8,862 nucleotides of DNA from a virus (lineage: Duplodnaviria; Heunggongvirae; Uroviricota; Caudoviricetes). The DNA lies in the IMG/VR virus record IMGVR_UViG_2537562091_000008, positions 1 to 8,862 of that record. The stretch is one strand, 5' to 3'. Positions 1,009-7,567 of the stretch are shown here, piece after piece (within the stretch, counting starts at the first letter, position 1; the number at the start of each line of letters is the position of its first letter). Below the pieces are notes generated by a model, which had not been told where the DNA came from, ran no database searches, and worked only from the letters and a program-made list of their open reading frames with translations. A program made the translations under genes and the position numbers.

Positions 1009-1083
1009 GTCCTCTTAGTTAAATGGATATAACGAGCCCCTCCTAAGGGCTAATTGCAGGTTCGATTCCTGCAGGGGACACCA
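1009..1083 (+). tRNA. argW: tRNA-Arg (anticodon CCU), argW
   Basis: 75-nt cloverleaf: acceptor stem GTCCTCT/AGGGGAC, anticodon stem AGCCC/GGGCT with loop CTCCTAA (anticodon CCT), T-arm GGTTCGATTCC, encoded 3' CCA at 1081-1083. Matches the argW sequence as I recall it. Confidence 0.9.
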
Positions 1084-1178
1084 TTTATCAGTTCGCTCCC
1101 ATCCGTACCAGTCCGCAAAATCCCCTGAATATCAAGCCTTCTGTAGATGCACAGTTCGTAATGGTTCGCGTCAGATCG

Positions 1179-1244
1179 TTGACAGCCGCACTCCATGACG
1201 GGTAAAAAGTGGATAAAATAATTTTACCCACCGGATTTTTACCC
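1179..1244 (+). promoter_or_regulatory. Candidate integrase promoter/operator: consensus -35 TTGACA (1179-1184) plus three copies of an 8-bp motif immediately upstream of the int start
   Basis: TTGACA at 1179-1184; possible -10 TAAAAA at 1203-1208 (18-nt spacer, weak). Perfect inverted repeat GGGTAAAA (1200-1207) / TTTTACCC (1222-1229) with a further direct copy TTTTACCC at 1237-1244 abutting the ATG at 1245. Confidence 0.3.
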
Positions 1245-2402
1245 ATGCTCACCGTTAAGCAGATTGAAGCAGCAAAGCCGAAAGAAAAACCATACCGCCT
1301 TCTCGATGGTAATGGCCTGTACCTTTATGTCCCTGTATCAGGGAAAAAGGTATGGCAGCTTCGCTACAAGATTGACGGTAAGGAGAAAATCCTGACCGTC
1401 GGAAAATATCCGCTTATGACTTTGCAGGAGGCAAGGGATAAAGCATGGACTGCGAGGAAAGACATCTCGGTTGGCATCGATCCGGTAAAAGCAAAAAAGG
1501 CTTCGTCTAACAACAATTCCTTTAGCGCCATTTACAAGGAATGGTACGAGCACAAGAAGCAAGTCTGGTCTGTAGGTTATGCTACTGAACTTGCCAGAAT
1601 GTTTGATGACGACATTTTACCTATCATCGGCGGCCTTGAAATTCAAGATATTGAGCCGATGCAACTGCTGGAAGTAATCCGCAGATTTGAAGAGCGCGGG
1701 GCAATGGAGAGAGCCAATAAAGCCCGCAGAAGATGCGGAGAGGTTTTCCGTTACGCTATTGTCACCGGCAGGGCTAAATATAACCCAGCACCTGACCTTG
1801 CTGACGCCATGAAGGGATACCGCAAGAAGAACTTCCCGTTTCTTCCTGCAGACCAGATCACGGCATTTAACAAAGCACTGGCAACATTTTCAGGAAGTAT
1901 CGTATCGCTCATTGCCACCAAGGTTTTACGCTACACAGCCCTAAGAACGAAAGAGCTTCGTTCCATGCTATGGAAGAACGTCGATTTTGAAAACAGGATT
2001 ATCACCATCGACGCCAGTGTGATGAAGGGCCGCAAGATTCATGTAGTGCCGATGTCAGACCAGGTGGTTGAACTTCTCACTACGCTAAGCTCAATCACCA
2101 AACCAGTATCAGAGTTTGTTTTTGCCGGGCGCAACGATAAGAAGAAGCCAATCTGCGAGAACGCGGTACTGCTTGTGATTAAACAAATCGGCTATGAAGG
2201 TCTGGAAAGCGGTCACGGATTCAGGCATGAATTCAGCACGATTATGAACGAGCACGAATGGCCTGCCGACGCCATTGAAGTGCAACTGGCACATGCCAAC
2301 GGCGGATCTGTGCGTGGGATTTACAACCATGCACAGTATCTCGATAAGCGCAGAGAAATGATGCAGTGGTGGGCAGATTGGATTGATGAAAAGGTGGAGT
2401 AA
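1245..2402 (+). CDS. intS: Prophage tyrosine integrase (CPS-53/KpLE1 IntS-like, P4-family)
   Basis: 385-aa product starting MLTVKQIEAAKPKEKPYRLLDGNGLYLYV, recognised as E. coli IntS. Tyrosine-recombinase catalytic region present (HGFRHEF ... RGIYNHAQY). Lies about 160 bp downstream of argW in the same orientation, as at the K-12 argW-intS locus. The six-frame ORF extends to a GTG at 1209 (12 extra residues); the ATG at 1245 is preferred on homology but has no obvious Shine-Dalgarno. Confidence 0.9.
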   Translation: MLTVKQIEAAKPKEKPYRLLDGNGLYLYVPVSGKKVWQLRYKIDGKEKILTVGKYPLMTLQEARDKAWTARKDISVGIDPVKAKKASSNNNSFSAIYKEWYEHKKQVWSVGYATELARMFDDDILPIIGGLEIQDIEPMQLLEVIRRFEERGAMERANKARRRCGEVFRYAIVTGRAKYNPAPDLADAMKGYRKKNFPFLPADQITAFNKALATFSGSIVSLIATKVLRYTALRTKELRSMLWKNVDFENRIITIDASVMKGRKIHVVPMSDQVVELLTTLSSITKPVSEFVFAGRNDKKKPICENAVLLVIKQIGYEGLESGHGFRHEFSTIMNEHEWPADAIEVQLAHANGGSVRGIYNHAQYLDKRREMMQWWADWIDEKVE

Positions 2403-2411
2403 TGCCACCCA

Positions 2412-2729
2412 TCACACCACCACGCCATCCTGCAGCGCGCTGTTGATGAAGTACGTAACACGCCCCATCACCTCCACCTCTTCCGCCGCCTCCACTTCGA
2501 TCGCTTCACCATCATCCGTGATTAATGCCCTTCCCATCACTCTGGCAAATTGCGTTCTGCCGCCGGACAAAATCAGCAGAACCTGATTCTGAACCAGCCT
2601 GGTGCACGGCTGGGACGGAAGTCGCTGTCGTTCTCAAAATCGGTGGAGTTGCATGACAAAGTCATCGGGCATTATCTGAACATAAAACACTATCAGTAAG
2701 TTGGAGTCATTACCGACAATGCGCAGGAA
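2412..2729 (-). pseudogene. Decayed coding remnant convergent with intS (one in-frame TGA, no credible start codon)
   Basis: Minus-strand frame reads [31 protein letters not shown]-[TGA at 2634-2636][73 protein letters not shown], ending at TGA 2412-2414, only 10 bp from the intS stop. Protein-like composition, but interrupted and in a different frame from the ORF fragment upstream of it. Confidence 0.2.
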
Positions 2730-2899
2730 TCACGAAACTCGTTCAGATCAGGCTTATTACCATCGACTTTAACGGCAGTATTTGGCTTAAAATAAAAACC
2801 AGCGCCCCACCCGTTACCGCGCACTTCAATAATGGCAATGCTGTTAATTCATTTAACCTCTCCACCGTCAAATTTGAAAGCACCGCTTTCTGTTTTCAT
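2693..2899 (-). pseudogene. Small ORF interrupted by an in-frame TGA, translationally coupled to the upstream 61-aa ORF
   Basis: ATG at 2899-2897 lies 1 nt after the TAA of the 61-aa ORF and is preceded by GGAG (spacer about 10 nt). Reads MKTESGAFKFDGGEVK-[TGA 2849-2851][51 protein letters not shown], stop TGA at 2693-2695. Missed by the ORF track because of the internal stop. Confidence 0.3.
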
Positions 2900-2900
2900 T

Positions 2901-3086
2901 TTAATCATTCTCCGTAACAGGTTCATTGTGAGCAGCATTTAGTACTCGCTGGAGTGGCTGGTCATTTTCGCGATCTAATTCAGCCTGTAATGTATTCATT
3001 GAAGAATTAAAAGCAGGAACTTCATGACCGCTAAGATTTACGCGAAGCATAAACTGCATGATATTTTGAATAGTTTGCTTATCCAT
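2901..3086 (-). CDS. Hypothetical small acidic protein (61 aa) immediately downstream of the tailspike gene
   Basis: ORF MDKQTIQNIMQFMLRVNLSGHEVPAFNSSMNTLQAELDRENDQPLQRVLNAAHNEPVTEND. Good Shine-Dalgarno (AGGA, 7-nt spacer) before the ATG at 3086-3084. Starts 12 nt after the tailspike stop, consistent with co-transcription. No family recognised. Confidence 0.5.
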   Translation of the reverse strand: MDKQTIQNIMQFMLRVNLSGHEVPAFNSSMNTLQAELDRENDQPLQRVLNAAHNEPVTEND

Positions 3087-3098
3087 TTTATTGTCCTG

Positions 3099-4535
3099 TT
3101 AAGTTAAACCAATTAATCCATGCCCGGTTGAAGCATGTAAGTCCTGAATTAATGCTGCAACCACCTTTGCTAAATCTTCGTGAGTTATTGTTCCAGAGTT
3201 AAATGCTGCTCGGGATACGGTGCCGGTTGGCGATCCCCATCCCGTCCTCCTCTCTGAAATAACTTGATTGCCATTAAGTCGTATTCTTAAGTTGTTGAAG
3301 TTAGCCCAGTTTTCAGCCCTGTTGAAACTCAAATGTGTTGTATTTGCCGGGCCCGTTCCTACCGTAATTCGTTGATTGTCGCCCATCAAAATTGCGCAGT
3401 TGTTTGAAAATCCAGCTTCAGAAAATGAAATTCCACTCCTAAAATAATTTGTTCTAAATCTAATGCCGTTTGCAGCTCTAGATGATAGAGATCCCTCAAG
3501 TCTGATGTATTCGCCATTACCTACCTCGGTTAGTTCCTCTGTTGGAGTGGAAATAGAATTACCTCTAAACAACATTCCTGTCCAGATATAACCATTTGGA
3601 GCTTCACTCCCTCTTCCGATGGTAATCATCTGTGTTACTGGATTGCTTTTATCCTGAGTTACACATACCAACCCTCTTACAGATCCTTGCAGTGTATTCT
3701 CCATCCATCCTTTATCGGGACCTCGATTATTCAGATTAAATTCATGTGCAATAGTGCTAATCGCTCCATTCTGCACTGCATCTCCTAATACGGCACCATA
3801 TGACCACCCCCCCCATGTTTCGGCTTGCGGATTTCTTGATTCTCCACGCATGTGGTGACCAATTGAATGCCCATTCCCGCCCTCATGCTTAGCAACACTT
3901 GTAGTTGTGCATGTATATGCACTTCCTGACACCTTGCGCAAAGAGTTATAAATTACCCCCTGATCCCATCGTTTGATGCCGTCATCCCTAGTTGCAGAAC
4001 TAATTTTTTCCAGCCAAATAATGGGATCTGGAATTGGTGTTTCTGGTATGGAGAATCTCTGTCGTGTAGCATTTTTATATATGATAGTTTCATTGTTATA
4101 AATATTGTCACCAGCTGCATCTGAACCAGTCCATCCTGAGCCAGCATAAAAATTATTAAGTCCATCACCAGACTGTCCAGTCAAAACTACTCTTAACTGA
4201 TCCGGGTCATACTTCAGCACATTCGGAAAATAGAACTGATGCGCACCGTACGCATCATAAACAGCCATAGAATGGCCTTGCACGGTAACGAACTTGGCAA
4301 TCTGTCCGTTATATACCGGATATCCAGCAGCGTTAATGATGATTGGTTGAGAAACAGGAATGTGAGAACCGTCTTCGTTCTCTACATAAACCTGAATCTG
4401 GTTTTCAGGGTTTACCGGGTCAGTGTCAATTTTACCGATATAAATTTTGCCATTGGCTACGGCTTTAAAAGAACGAGCCATAGTGAAGAGTTGCGAAGGC
4501 ATGCTTACCACAACATTTGCGGTGATATCTGACAT
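3099..4535 (-). CDS. Phage tailspike protein: P22 gp9-like head-binding N-terminal domain fused to a divergent receptor-binding domain
   Basis: N-terminal ~115 aa ([97 protein letters not shown]...NVLKYDPDQ) align closely with the P22 tailspike head-binding domain as I recall it; the remaining ~360 aa are unrelated to the P22 endorhamnosidase body. Start set at ATG 4535-4533 (GGAG 7 nt upstream) rather than the upstream ATG at 4583. Visibly AT-rich relative to neighbours. Confidence 0.85.
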
Positions 4536-4656
4536 TTCATTGCTCCAGACGAATGATATGATGCAACCATGATGTGATTGCATACCGAAATGGTACTATT
4601 GAGTATTTATCCAGTAGGTTACGATGCCATTCCACCCAACTGGTGAGGCATCAAGG
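4536..4656. promoter_or_regulatory. Divergent control region between the tailspike and mnt genes, with a candidate operator (inverted repeat ATGCAA-N11-TTGCAT, 4561-4583)
   Basis: 121-bp gap between divergent start codons. Inverted repeat read directly. A plausible plus-strand promoter for mnt (-35 TTGCAT 4578-4583, 17-nt spacer, -10 GAGTAT 4601-4606) overlaps the repeat. Contains a TAGGT motif (4614-4618) that resembles part of the P22 mnt operator half-site as I recall it. Confidence 0.3.
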
Positions 4657-4923
4657 ATGTACAGCAAATACGACGAGGCGCAGTTTCACTTGAGACTTCC
4701 GCATGAACTCCACGCGAAAATTAAGCAGCGTGCGAAGATGAATAACAGGTCGCTGAACTCAGAGATAATTGCAGCGATTGAAGAATCATTGGCTAAACAA
4801 AGCTCTGCATCTGTTTACATTGACGATGCAGAGCGTATGGCAGAACAACAATCTGAGATGGTTAAGAAAATTGTCTTTGATACGCTTAAGACCATGTATA
4901 GCAATAATAAAAAGGAAACATAG
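4657..4923 (+). CDS. mnt: Mnt-like ribbon-helix-helix transcriptional repressor (P22 immI-type)
   Basis: 88-aa product MYSKYDEAQFHLRLPHELHAKIKQRAKMNNRSLNSEIIAAIEESLAKQSSASVYIDDAERMAEQQSEMVKKIVFDTLKTMYSNNKKET, closely parallel to P22 Mnt as recalled (FNFRMPMEVREKLKFRAEANGRSMNSELLQIVQDALSK ... NDAERLADEQSELVKKMVFDTLK). Alternative upstream ATG at 4624 would add 11 residues. Confidence 0.8.
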   Translation: MYSKYDEAQFHLRLPHELHAKIKQRAKMNNRSLNSEIIAAIEESLAKQSSASVYIDDAERMAEQQSEMVKKIVFDTLKTMYSNNKKET

Positions 4924-4993
4924 AAATCTAGTTTCCGGCTAAAATGGCATTGCCTTCATGATATCCTGTGAAAAACTAAGGAGAGTTAACCAT

Positions 4994-5479
4994 ATGAAAA
5001 AATCACTGTTAATTATCCCGCTTCTGCTGGTTGGATGCGCAAAAGTAAGTGACTATCAAGCAAGTTGCGAACAACGCTATCAAAAGCTTAGCGATATGGC
5101 TAATTGCCTTGATGCCAGTGTGAAGAACGACTCACGCATGGCATCAGCACCAACACCTAAGCTGTATGTCCTTGCTGCAAAGATGCTCGGGCAAGGTGTC
5201 GATGAAGGCAAGATAAGTGACGCACAGGCAAGACTTGAGCTTCAGAATCTTTATGTTCAATTACAAAGCCAAGAACAAGCCCAACAAATAGCACAAAGCC
5301 AAGCATTCCAGCAGGCTTTATTGAATTATCAGGCTGTAAACACAATGCAAGCGATCGAGCAAAAAGCGCGCCAGCCTGTTATAACTCAACCTTACCCAAC
5401 ACGCGTTGACACTTACACAAACTGCAATTCAGGGTTTGGAAATACAGTCACATGCAACAGTAGCAGTAACATCAGATAA
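4994..5479 (+). CDS. Prophage-encoded lipoprotein (candidate superinfection-exclusion / lysogenic-conversion protein)
   Basis: ATG at 4994 preceded by AAGGAG (4978-4983). N-terminus MKKSLLIIPLLLVGC is a type II signal peptide with lipobox LVGC; the residue after Cys is Ala. Mature part has a Cys-rich N-terminal segment, a Gln-rich predicted helical segment (QNLYVQLQSQEQAQQIAQSQAFQQALLNYQAVNTMQAIEQKARQ) and a C-terminal Cys pair. Same strand as and 70 bp downstream of mnt. Confidence 0.65.
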   Translation: MKKSLLIIPLLLVGCAKVSDYQASCEQRYQKLSDMANCLDASVKNDSRMASAPTPKLYVLAAKMLGQGVDEGKISDAQARLELQNLYVQLQSQEQAQQIAQSQAFQQALLNYQAVNTMQAIEQKARQPVITQPYPTRVDTYTNCNSGFGNTVTCNSSSNIR

Positions 5480-5569
5480 CAATCAGCAAAGGTATCGCCT
5501 ATGCAGAGGAATACGATAAACCTCGCGTTCTACATATTTGGTTTTTGCACGTTCCTGGTGTTTGAAAGG

Positions 5570-7567
5570 CTATTCTGACAACGAATCAGACTTAGCACCC
5601 TGCGTCAGTGCATTAATCGCTTTTTGCGCTTGCTGCATGGCTTTCTCAAACGCTGTCGATCCGCGTGGTGTGTTTGCCATTCGGAGCATTGCATTTCTGA
5701 ATGGTTCGCTCTCATAGGCGCGAGTAAGAAGTCCGTAGCTTACCGCTGCGCCAGTTGTCGCCGGGTTCATTGCTGTCCCATACCCGATAATGAACGGGAT
5801 GGTTTGCTGCCCTGTTGGTGTTGTTACTGCCGCTTTTGCAGCCTGCTGCGTGGATTGCAGGTAGTTTTTCAATCCTTTCAGATAAGCAGCGTCCTGCCCC
5901 TTAAATGTGATGCCAGTCTGGTTTTGCAGGATGTTAAGCTGTCGAAGGAACTGATCAGGGGAACCCCCTGATTTCTCCATCGCCTTTCCAATGATGCCAT
6001 TGCGCATTTGCGCCCTGCCAACACGACCAACTGAGTTATACAGCGTCTTAATTTCCGATTTGTTCTTGCTGAATAGCATGTTGTTGACAACTTCCGGCGT
6101 CAGATCGCCTTTCATGAGAACATTCTTCAGCCTGGTATTCTTTAGTTTCGCCGCTTCGTCAGCGTAGACGGCATTGGCCTGCTGATATTTACGGAGAGTA
6201 TCGTTGCCAAGATTCTGACCAATGGCACCATTGATATCGTCTGTCATCGCCTTGTAAACGCGCTGAATGGCAGCATCGGAACGGTTTGGTAACACTGGTC
6301 GTTCCCCCTTCACGTCCATTCTGAACTGGCTGCGCAGATCGCTTAATTGCTTCAAATCCAGATTTACCGGACCATCAGGACTAGCATTGCGAACAAGCTC
6401 ATCACGATAGGACTGAAGTTTTGAAATAGTCTCGTTATCAGCAACCTTACCAAGCTTCTGCAGGTTAGATATTTCTGTATCAATCTGCTGAATTGCTCGC
6501 GCAGGCTGAATGTTTACTCCAGCCATAGCATTCTGAACCTGCTCCAGTCGATTACCGGCGGCACGACGAATTCCTGATGTTTTCGCTTTAAGGCTGTCAA
6601 TAACAACCGCTGGATCATACTCGCCGAATTTATCAGCAAATCTCTGCACCAACTGACTTCTCGCTTCCTGTTGCGTTGCTCTCATTCCGCTTGTGCCAGC
6701 CAGGGGAATATTTTCTGCTGTAGTCTGCGCCATTTTCCCGACGCGGGAAGTAGGCTGTAACAGGTCTGTGGTGTGCAGAGGCACTCCTTCACGCTCTGCA
6801 AATCTGATAGCTTGCTGCGCTTCTGGTGCAATAGCACCACGAACGCCACGATAAGCAGCGCCTAATCCACGTCCGGCAGCGTTAATAGCGCCGCCAGCCA
6901 GAACGCCAACGCCTAAATCGGTGGCGAGTGCTTCCGCATCATCTTTCGCACTATTTGCAGCAAGTGATCCAACTGCGTTTTCTGCTAGAAGGCGAGTTGC
7001 CCCCTGAGCAATTCGACCAGCAAGTGTTGGTGCCTGTGTTGCCGCTCTCTCAACGCCAGCAGGAGTGAGGTAAGGCAATGCTTCAGCAAATACCCTTCCC
7101 TCTGTCGTTTGTGGAGTCAGCGCGCCTTGCTGAAGGCCAAAGTCCTGCTCTAATCCCTGCGTTGTTACTCGTGGTGCTGGTTGATATGTACCATCGCCAA
7201 TGCCGAGTTTACCGCCAGCCCAAGCCGCCGCGCTTGTTACAGCATCAGCAACTGATGCAGGTATATTTGCCACGTTCACGCCAGCCTGCACCAGTCCGCG
7301 ACCAGTCTCTTTTACTGCTTCGCCAAGATCAGACATAAATCCACTTTGCTGTGGTTGTTGCTGTGCTACTGGTTGCTGTGTCTCCACTGGCTGTACAGAT
7401 GGCAATGGATAGGCAGCATAGAAAGCTTGCTTAGCCTGCTCTGCATTTTCTCCGGCTTGCGGGGCCACGACTTCATTGAAGTATTGCTCCTGAGCTTGCG
7501 CTTTTTGTTCTGGTGCTAACGCCTGATACTGTGGAGAGGCGATAACATCTTTCCATGCTTTAGCCAT
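5570..7567 (-). CDS. Phage ejection (internal virion / DNA-transfer) protein, P22 gp16-like by position
   Basis: 665-aa ORF, the last gene of the late operon before the immunity/tailspike region, which is where gene 16 sits in P22-like genomes. Start ATG overlaps the upstream gene's stop (TAATG at 7565-7569). Long Ala/Gly/Gln-rich low-complexity segments. Assignment is by synteny and composition, not by recalled sequence identity. Confidence 0.55.
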   Translation of the reverse strand: MAKAWKDVIASPQYQALAPEQKAQAQEQYFNEVVAPQAGENAEQAKQAFYAAYPLPSVQPVETQQPVAQQQPQQSGFMSDLGEAVKETGRGLVQAGVNVANIPASVADAVTSAAAWAGGKLGIGDGTYQPAPRVTTQGLEQDFGLQQGALTPQTTEGRVFAEALPYLTPAGVERAATQAPTLAGRIAQGATRLLAENAVGSLAANSAKDDAEALATDLGVGVLAGGAINAAGRGLGAAYRGVRGAIAPEAQQAIRFAEREGVPLHTTDLLQPTSRVGKMAQTTAENIPLAGTSGMRATQQEARSQLVQRFADKFGEYDPAVVIDSLKAKTSGIRRAAGNRLEQVQNAMAGVNIQPARAIQQIDTEISNLQKLGKVADNETISKLQSYRDELVRNASPDGPVNLDLKQLSDLRSQFRMDVKGERPVLPNRSDAAIQRVYKAMTDDINGAIGQNLGNDTLRKYQQANAVYADEAAKLKNTRLKNVLMKGDLTPEVVNNMLFSKNKSEIKTLYNSVGRVGRAQMRNGIIGKAMEKSGGSPDQFLRQLNILQNQTGITFKGQDAAYLKGLKNYLQSTQQAAKAAVTTPTGQQTIPFIIGYGTAMNPATTGAAVSYGLLTRAYESEPFRNAMLRMANTPRGSTAFEKAMQQAQKAINALTQGAKSDSLSE

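Follow-up and report, generated by a model that had tools for sequence, protein, structure and literature searches.

The immI region of phage P22 comprises, besides mnt, the genes arc and ant, the antisense RNA sar, the operators Omnt and Oarc, and the overlapping divergent promoters Pant and Pmnt. The variable region of the related phages has been named the "ant moron", and ST64T, ST104, and Para1 were found to carry only mnt plus one gene of unknown function there (Villafane et al., 2008, PMC2629481). The mnt-only layout was reported in phage L as well (Zaworski et al., 2020, PMC8022706), and the authors of that genome considered the lone mnt-like gene as a possible non-functional leftover (PMC8022706). 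In the mnt-only ant moron (ST64T, ST104, Para1, and L, as well as ST160, SE1, Gally, 720R6, Brookers, Sf101, and IME10), mnt is either the only gene or accompanied by one or two genes without an assigned function; the module is flanked by an injection-protein gene and the tailspike gene, and mnt diverges from the latter across a gap of about 110-150 bp. In our search of the literature, we found no description of retained operators or of their specificity classes in the mnt-only phages. CUS-3 and related loci (L129, L108, and JEP4 in this study) share the same variable region, in which modules are joined at short conserved boundary sequences, but differ in that their antirepressor is under its own ribbon-helix-helix or C2-like regulators. 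Finally, prophage BTP1 expresses the antisense RNA STnc6030, which makes the host immune to superinfection through base pairing (Owen et al., 2020, PMC7067206).

The stand-alone mnt gene of the window

The window, namely the whole stretch of 8,862 nucleotides analyzed here, covers the left end of an E. coli prophage that is P22-like (Lederbergvirus) and lies at tRNA-Arg(CCU); it contains the following genes.

1-933: formate/nitrite-transporter-family gene, adjoining the prophage left end
1009-1083: tRNA-Arg(CCU)
1209-2402, plus strand: integrase
2901-3086, minus strand: 61-aa ORF just 3' of the tailspike gene, taken from the ORF list
3099-4535, minus strand: tailspike gene, 478 aa, with a P22-type head-binding N-terminal domain (Pfam Head_binding, 1.8e-66)
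4657-4923, plus strand: Mnt-family repressor gene, 88 aa, supported by Pfam, PDB, and dN/dS
4994-5479, plus strand: lipoprotein-like gene at the position of P22 sieA, phrog_6067 (PHROG, 1.6e-110), function unassigned
7567-5570, minus strand: homologue of P22 gene 16 (injection protein), phrog_770 (1.7e-239)
8862-7567, minus strand: homologue of P22 gene 20 (injection gene)

The tailspike protein starts with MSDITANVV, and its gene is preceded by a ribosome-binding site, GGAG (4547-4544, minus strand); approximately 25 nt directly 5' of its ATG are similar to the leader of P22 gene 9. The Pfam search gave no match for the lipoprotein-like gene, and the 61-aa ORF, probably the "downstream small ORF" of the initial annotation, had no significant match in Pfam or PHROG.

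The variable region that separates the tailspike gene from the gene-16 homologue is of the mnt-only form in the window: it holds mnt, on the strand opposite to the late operon, and a single lipoprotein-like gene. The ATGs of the divergent tailspike and mnt genes are separated by 121 bp (4536-4656). The initial annotation had described a Mnt homologue divergent from the tailspike gene across 121 bp with neither arc nor ant, and the coordinates, the Pfam and PDB searches, and tblastn all agree with this description. P22 Arc and Ant used as tblastn queries against the window retrieved nothing besides mnt itself, no Rfam match to sar or any other RNA family was found in 4300-5600 at E <= 1, the target of sar (the ant start region) is absent from the window, and no sequence like the P22 Arc operator was seen by inspection. 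The locus resembles P22 immI in the two-domain protein family, the location flanked by the tailspike gene and the gene-16 homologue, the orientation of mnt against the late operon, and the distance between the operator and the -35 of the mnt promoter (see below for the details). On the other hand, it lacks arc, ant, sar, Oarc, and both -35 and -10 of Pant, and its mnt leader (GATGCC...GGCATC) differs from that of P22.

The arrangement is common and has already been described in related phages. Divergent mnt and tailspike genes without arc or ant were identified in Sf101, IME10, VSe13, JEP4 (see below for its gap), Gally, vB_EcoP-720R6, ST160, SE1, Brookers, and MS2 LVA. The Mnt proteins of Sf101 and IME10 are 92% identical to that of the window, and the 121-bp gap is identical in Sf101 and differs by one base in IME10. 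At least 241 of 5426 complete E. coli genomes possess the layout, when matches covering at least 80% of a 601-bp query spanning the junction were counted. Window-type Mnt was found in about 160 IMG/VR and genome loci, an approximate number as a few contigs were entered twice.

The protein encoded by the window is a genuine Mnt homologue with both Mnt domains, namely an N-terminal ribbon-helix-helix (Arc-like) domain (Pfam Arc, PF03869, 7.4e-15) and a C-terminal tetramerisation helix (Pfam Repressor_Mnt, PF11423, 8e-14). It matched PDB entries 1MNT (2.2e-19, residues 6-78) and 1QEY (4.3e-7) and shares 48.7% amino-acid identity with P22 Mnt. The start codon at 4657 lies 8 nt 3' of a Shine-Dalgarno sequence, GGTGAGG (4642-4648, plus strand), which is conserved in the alignment. 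An in-frame ATG at 4624, annotated as the mnt start in Sf101, is an unlikely start, as it falls inside the predicted -10 of the mnt promoter and the equivalent frame is closed by a stop codon in the other Mnt classes.

The mnt gene is under strong purifying selection, with dN/dS of about 0.06 at dS >1.5. Over the first 52 codons, the 56 comparisons to the window copy with dS >0.1 gave a mean of 0.056, and the values ranged from 0.05 to 0.11 in the most diverged comparisons (dS >1.3). All but one of the 168 mnt copies (167/168) are intact. The sole copy with a stop codon belongs to a Citrobacter locus (L014), in which a half-site of the predicted operator is also damaged (ATAGTAC). Such strong selection argues that mnt is not a decaying remnant. 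Thus, the label "immI remnant" given in the initial annotation is misleading for a stand-alone arrangement that is old, widespread, and maintained by purifying selection.

The predicted operator and its specificity classes

The following elements were recognized or predicted in the gap and the mnt leader.

4561-4583: inverted repeat flagged in the initial annotation, arms ATGCAACCA (4561-4569) and TGATTGCAT (4575-4583) around TGATG, 9-bp arms with one mismatch
4582-4596: predicted Mnt operator ATACCGAAATGGTAC, core TACC (4583-4586) and GGTA (4592-4595), from comparative analysis
4599-4625, plus strand: predicted mnt promoter, -35 TTGAGT (4599-4604), 15-nt spacer, -10 TACGAT (4620-4625), from sequence
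4623-4652, plus strand: nested inverted repeat in the mnt leader, GATGCC (4623-4628) and GGCATC (4647-4652) around CACC (4633-4636) and GGTG (4642-4645)

As the initial annotation had proposed, we compared the gap with the P22 mnt operator and found a symmetric TACC-N5-GGTA at the homologous position. Read in the direction of mnt, P22 has AGGTCCACCGTGGACCT-A-TTGAGA-17-TATCAT, which corresponds to the annotated mnt operator and Pmnt, and the window has ATACCGAAATGGTAC-TA-TTGAGT-15-TACGAT. The two-fold symmetric sequence in the window is 2-3 nt from the -35 of the predicted mnt promoter, and takes the position that the P22 mnt operator occupies relative to the -35 of its promoter. Only one copy of the core, against 0.07 expected, is present in the window, and the whole 38.7-kb genome of Sf101 likewise has a single site; no second site was found in either.

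The exact TACC-N5-GGTA core was conserved in 156 of the 167 loci with window-type Mnt, and the remainder bear single substitutions. This conservation is opposed to the scenario, raised in the initial annotation, that related phages had simply lost arc and ant with no conserved operator retained. The half-sites are conserved at 90% or higher in these loci, and the variation is almost wholly confined to two of the five central positions, namely positions 6 (G/T/A) and 10 (T/C) of the 15-mer. The center of the core keeps a distance of 67-70 nt to the start codon of mnt in 154 of the 156 loci, while its spacing to the tailspike ATG is anywhere between 53 and 1390 nt. The DNA on the tailspike side has been exchanged altogether in a number of gap classes (121, 132, and 134-137 bp, and the rearranged loci L059 and L015), and, after the replaced flank in L059, L015, and the 132-137-bp classes, homology restarts exactly at the operator. 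From these comparisons, ATACCGAAATGGTAC at 4582-4596 is likely the operator of the window Mnt.

Across the Mnt classes, the operator half-sites change together with the reading residues on the beta-strand. Three classes were distinguished by the sequence of this strand, as listed below.

DPHFNFRMP (P22 type, H6/N8): operator GGTCCAC-N-GTGGACC; arc and ant present in 15/15 loci
DPQFNLRLP (ST160 and 720R6 type, Q6/N8): operator AGACCAC-N-GTGGTCT; 64/64 loci stand-alone beside the tailspike gene, no arc or ant
EAQFHLRLP/T (window type, Q/H plus a longer N-terminal arm): operator rTACC-N5-GGTAC; no arc or ant except the ant 3' fragment of L151, leaving aside the 419-bp gap of JEP4, which has window-type Mnt

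The residues by which P22 Mnt contacts DNA, which we take to be R2, H6, N8, and R10, align with Y5 (K4 being beside it), Q9, H11, and R13 of the window Mnt, of which the N-terminal arm is two residues longer. As three of the four positions are changed (R2 to Y/K, H6 to Q, and N8 to H), the reading strand of the window Mnt differs from that of P22 Mnt. The P22 half-site AGGTCCAC is nevertheless recognizably akin to the right half of the window operator, AGTACCAT. Among the mnt-only phages, ST160, SE1, Gally, and 720R6 differ from the window in belonging to the operator class of AGACCAC-N-GTGGTCT with Q6/N8. Altogether, the alignments point to the window Mnt as having a distinct operator specificity within an already described arrangement. 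What is new here is a member with such a specificity, not a new kind of system. The repressor/operator pairs of H6/N8, Q6/N8, and Q/H form a natural series, which is possibly useful to study how beta-strand readers change their specificity.

Promoters and possible targets of Mnt

The predicted mnt promoter of the window aligns hexamer for hexamer with P22 Pmnt and with the promoters of the other stand-alone classes. An equivalent of Pmnt (TTGnnn, 17 nt, TAnnAT) was found at the homologous place in every stand-alone class with 7-9 of 12 matches by a simple hexamer score, which allows spacers of 15-19 nt and recovers P22 Pant (TTGACA-17-TATATT) at 11/12 and Pmnt at 10/12. The 15-nt spacer is peculiar to the 121-bp class, in which 2 bp have been deleted, in contrast to 17 nt in all other classes. 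The window promoter was not listed in a promoter scan restricted to spacers of 16-18 nt. The short spacer should weaken the promoter, and transcription of mnt is expected to start near 4632.

In the direction of the tailspike gene, no promoter was listed in 4400-5100 by the scan with 16-18-nt spacers, and the hexamer score detected weak candidates only, at a non-homologous place in each stand-alone class. The site homologous to the -35 of P22 Pant (TTGACA) is AATGGC in the window, with none of the six bases matching, and ATCGGC or ACAAAC in other classes; the matches amount to 0-1 of six across the stand-alone classes. The equivalent of the Pant -10 lacks the key A and T positions. The P22 ant promoter thus has no counterpart in the window.

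These observations are best explained by a stand-alone, self-regulating Mnt module of a P22-like prophage, a reading that we regard as probable. Mnt, by homology a tetramer of two ribbon-helix-helix dimers, would bind the single operator ATACCGAAATGGTAC at 4582-4596, which would lie 2 nt from the -35 of its own promoter and have its center some 43 nt before the point where transcription is expected to start. The geometry is the same as that of the P22 mnt operator and Pmnt, and Mnt would therefore set its own expression level in the lysogen. P22 Mnt, acting from this geometry, represses Pant and favours Pmnt. The option in the initial annotation that Mnt controls its own promoter fits an operator predicted next to the -35 of that promoter. 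With no counterpart of the P22 ant promoter, the tailspike gene would be expressed by read-through from the late operon, as in Sf6, a relative that possesses no mnt at all. The homology, the gene layout, the conservation and co-variation of the operator, purifying selection, and the lack of a second site in a complete related genome are observations, and Mnt binding, the mnt promoter, the direction of autoregulation, and the benefit that maintains the module are inferences.

Control by Mnt probably does not extend to the lipoprotein-like gene. This gene is preceded by its own promoter-like extended -10, TGaTATCCT (4959-4967, plus strand), and approximately 45 nt 5' of the gene are conserved with VSe13, in which a gene on the opposite strand parts mnt from the lipoprotein gene. 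A single Mnt-controlled operon of mnt and the lipoprotein gene is unlikely, because VSe13 keeps the upstream element of the latter apart from mnt. In Sf101, which has no lipoprotein gene, mnt is the sole gene of the region, implying that the control of downstream cargo is not the general reason to keep mnt.

Regulating only itself brings a repressor no evident advantage, but the module is under strong conservation and comprises at least three operator specificities. Such a pattern is more typical of immunity systems directed at other phages, and the split into several specificities hints that Mnt acts in trans from one phage on another. One such possibility is that the stand-alone Mnt protects the lysogen in trans, by repressing ant promoters in phages that superinfect or reside in the same cell and have a complete immI of matching operator specificity, and thereby preventing forced induction. 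According to the P22 annotation, P22 Mnt does so for its own ant gene, and a role in trans would account for both purifying selection and the divergence of specificities with no target in cis. Locus L151 carries window-type mnt and its operator, the boundary sequence, and the last ~330 bp (3' third) of a P22-like ant with the terminator. This arrangement looks like a scar of deletion or recombination, and suggests that window-type Mnt was physically linked to ant at some point. Nevertheless, no intact arc-ant under a matching operator was found in the ~160 window-type or 64 Q-type loci, and all of the 15 loci with arc and ant carry P22-type Mnt, in a survey covering the loci retrieved via Mnt similarity and thus operators with a neighbouring mnt.

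The antirepressor modules beside window-type Mnt likewise lack TACC-N5-GGTA. Antirepressor-like genes beyond mnt, a P22-like ant in L129 and Rha/KilA in L108 and JEP4, have their own ribbon-helix-helix or C2-like regulators, and no second TACC-N5-GGTA site was found at these modules. The separate regulators and the absence of a second operator there imply that window-type Mnt is not the regulator of ant in any locus seen; in L129, L108, and JEP4, window-type mnt is a separate unit beside the tailspike gene. Altogether, we consider protection in trans unlikely, albeit deserving of some weight.

Rather unlikely, in our view, is the possibility that Mnt controls the tailspike gene, either by repressing a promoter in the gap directed at the tailspike gene or by roadblocking transcription that enters this gene from the late operon or otherwise from the right, and possibly also in trans on an incoming related phage. 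In every case, transcription has to pass the operator on its way into the tailspike gene, and the adjacency of mnt, operator, and tailspike gene holds in about 160 window-type and 64/64 Q-type loci, even where a separate antirepressor module with regulators of its own lies beyond mnt. The several operator specificities resemble immunity groups. The P22 ant region has been thought to affect the late transcription that reaches gene 9 (PMC2629481), and the antisense RNA of prophage BTP1 provides superinfection immunity at the same junction (PMC7067206). However, neither the promoter scan nor the hexamer score supplied a leftward sigma-70 promoter, the best candidates being non-homologous among classes, and the -35 of P22 Pant has been lost. 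The operator keeps its distance to mnt but not to the tailspike ATG, and the intervening DNA on the tailspike side is freely swapped. Furthermore, Sf6 and such relatives express the tailspike without mnt. The initial annotation had raised the possibility that Mnt controls the tailspike gene and the small ORF downstream; no tailspike-directed promoter was found, AATGGC stands at the place of the Pant -35, and the spacing of the operator to the tailspike ATG varies over 53-1390 nt. The link to tailspike control is thus unsupported.

Quite improbable is a secondary immunity system in which the stand-alone Mnt is aimed at the tailspike junction instead of an antirepressor. If true, Mnt made in the lysogen would attach to an operator of the same type in a related incoming phage and lower transcription into the tailspike gene of the latter, and the three or more specificities (GGTCCAC, AGACCAC, and rTACC) would act like immunity groups. 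Like mnt, STnc6030 of BTP1 is expressed from the prophage where the injection-protein gene meets the tailspike gene and is transcribed against the late operon, so that, by analogy, the tailspike junction is a known place for such functions. Nevertheless, STnc6030 is a non-coding RNA with neither a Mnt protein nor an operator, and can be regarded as a positional analogue only.

We hardly expect mnt to be a decaying, non-functional remainder of an immI that has been deleted. It is true that arc, ant, and sar are absent, the 15-nt promoter spacer could be a defect, and the same idea was raised by the authors of the phage L genome (PMC8022706), but the low dN/dS persists at saturated synonymous divergence, the copies are intact with the single exception described above, the half-sites are highly conserved, and the only disrupted copy is accompanied by a damaged operator. 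We therefore favour the lone mnt as a working repressor with a matching operator, seemingly kept for long without ant. For the lone mnt of phage L and ST64T type, the question of a leftover versus a working gene is settled on comparative grounds.

Inverted repeats in the gap and the mnt leader

The inverted repeat flagged in the initial annotation, ATGCAA-N11-TTGCAT, is present at 4561-4583, with ATGCAA at 4561-4566 and TTGCAT at 4578-4583 separated by 11 nt, and its last 2 nt overlap the predicted operator. It does not exceed the chance level. Of the dinucleotide-preserving shuffles of the 121-bp gap, 48% contained perfect 6-bp inverted arms no more than 20 nt apart, and 21% a 9-bp inverted repeat with one mismatch. 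The repeat is confined to the 121-bp gap class, accounting for 78 of the 167 window-type loci, and absent from the other 89, which share the same reading residues. It is highly improbable that Mnt, or any other regulator, uses this repeat as its operator. In favour of such a role, the repeat is palindromic and lies in the appropriate gap, the pairing is kept in L011 by one compensatory double change (G:C to T:A), two variants mend the single mismatch, and a second copy, ATGCAA-N13-TTGCAT, exists in non-coding DNA of Sf101. On the other hand, the pairing is broken in L072, L082, and L021, the second copy in Sf101 is within the chance expectation (0.15 per genome), and the repeat is off the P22-homologous position, unlike TACC-N5-GGTA, which is found in 156/167 loci at a fixed distance from mnt. 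TTRCAT, the right arm of the repeat, is directly beside the operator in most classes, and its conservation is better explained as that of the operator flank.

The flagged repeat was also considered as an RNA hairpin in the tailspike leader and rejected, as it folds no better than shuffled sequences (z = -0.87). The same stretch is readable as two pairs of ATGAT pentamers (4553-4578). By eye, a small repeat of another sequence (CCGCAGC-ATG-GCTACGG, namely the boundary sequence) is seen at much the same place in the other gap classes.

In the nested inverted repeat of the mnt leader, the 3' side overlaps the Shine-Dalgarno sequence. The outer stem coincides with the predicted consensus structure, of which the pairs are mostly invariant and the covariation is weak; the fold of the single sequence gave a z of -1.36. 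At the same place in the mnt leader, the other classes appear by eye to have different inner stems.

Predicted promoter and leader of mnt

The predicted mnt promoter (4599-4625) differs from its counterparts in the length of the spacer. A 2-bp deletion (ggtTTtacgat to ggttacgat) has shortened it to 15 nt in the loci with a 121-bp gap between mnt and the tailspike gene, including the window, whereas P22 and every other class carry a 17-nt spacer. The 121-bp class with the 15-nt spacer is the commonest class in E. coli. Two elements with the potential to form hairpins were found in the leader and at the 3' end of mnt, respectively.

4623-4652: leader of mnt, nested inverted repeat with outer arms GATGCC/GGCATC and inner arms CACC/GGTG
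4908-4935, (-), the late-operon strand: hairpin GGAAAC-N11-GTTTCC followed by TTTTTATTATT, inside the mnt 3' end

One side of the leader repeat lies over the -10 element and the other over the Shine-Dalgarno sequence. The outer stem was retained across nearly all of the stand-alone Mnt classes and was recovered by a consensus fold of the leader, albeit the paired positions are mostly invariant. Judged by eye, the inner stems at the same site vary by class (CACTT/AAGTG in ST160 and GTCC/GGAC in L012, one of the compared loci), and the leader of Brookers has TTGTC...GACAA as the outer stem. The hairpin at the 3' end is terminator-like and was missing from the list of the terminator scan because its loop is 11 nt; transcription reading through in the direction of the tailspike gene might be modulated by this hairpin.

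Within the gap, two pairs of the pentamer ATGAT were observed at 4553-4578, ATGATATGAT and ATGATGTGAT separated by gcaacc. The result is a 16-bp direct repeat with imperfect copies, which overlaps the inverted repeat flagged in the initial annotation (ATGCAA-N11-TTGCAT, 4561-4583). Phage Sf101 (L097) possesses a second ATGCAA-N13-TTGCAT at 20008-20032, in the non-coding sequence between a short ORF at the xis position and eag, and this occurrence falls within chance expectation (0.15 per genome).

Module boundaries in related loci

In L022 (1272-1880), 5 codons of the tailspike start remain as a stub beside the mnt gap, and the same arrangement was found in L013, L056, L070, and E. coli EC1515 and EC974. 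In these loci, an insertion of approximately 600 bp separates the stub from a new tailspike start (MTDSINANVVV), and RefSeq annotates an HNH-endonuclease gene at the insert site. The overall pattern resembles an exchange of modules inside the opening codons of the tailspike gene.

Locus L151 (414-790) comprises mnt and the operator of the window type, followed first by the boundary sequence cgtagccacgctgcgg and next by the 3' portion of ant. The latter corresponds to the last ~330 bp of a P22-like ant gene (91% nucleotide identity), terminator included. We regard L151 as a recombination or deletion scar linking the Mnt type of the window to ant. P22 itself also carries this stretch of internal ant sequence a second time, as a short copy located past its ant terminator.

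The Citrobacter locus L014 (about 1925-2015) is the sole one in which mnt is interrupted by a stop codon (MYSK*DEAQ). An operator half-site is also mutated in this locus (ATACCGAAATAGTAC), as if the gene and its operator site were decaying together.

Annotation of Mnt and the flanking genes

RefSeq phage records and PHROG 795 name Mnt homologues "partition protein ATPase" or "putative chromosome segregation ATPase", which is a propagated misannotation of an 88-aa ribbon-helix-helix protein (encoded at 4657-4923 in the window). The Sf101 mnt (14284-14577) is annotated from an upstream ATG equivalent to position 4624 of the window, which is probably not the real start.

One gene of the window lies at the position occupied in P22 by the superinfection-exclusion gene sieA.

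4994-5479: lipoprotein-like gene, signal peptide with an LLVGC lipobox; phrog_6067

No Pfam match was found for this gene. A conserved, promoter-like extended -10 (TGaTATCCT, 4959-4967) lies upstream of it, and we propose the gene as a candidate for a prophage-expressed exclusion or conversion gene.

At 1009-3086, the integrase gene immediately follows tRNA-Arg(CCU), and its transcription is directed at the tailspike gene's 3' end. The interval between the two genes is limited to about 500 bp and holds a 61-aa ORF, and thus the integrase and tailspike genome ends are adjacent in this prophage. In Sf101, in contrast, the attachment site would lie between these two ends.
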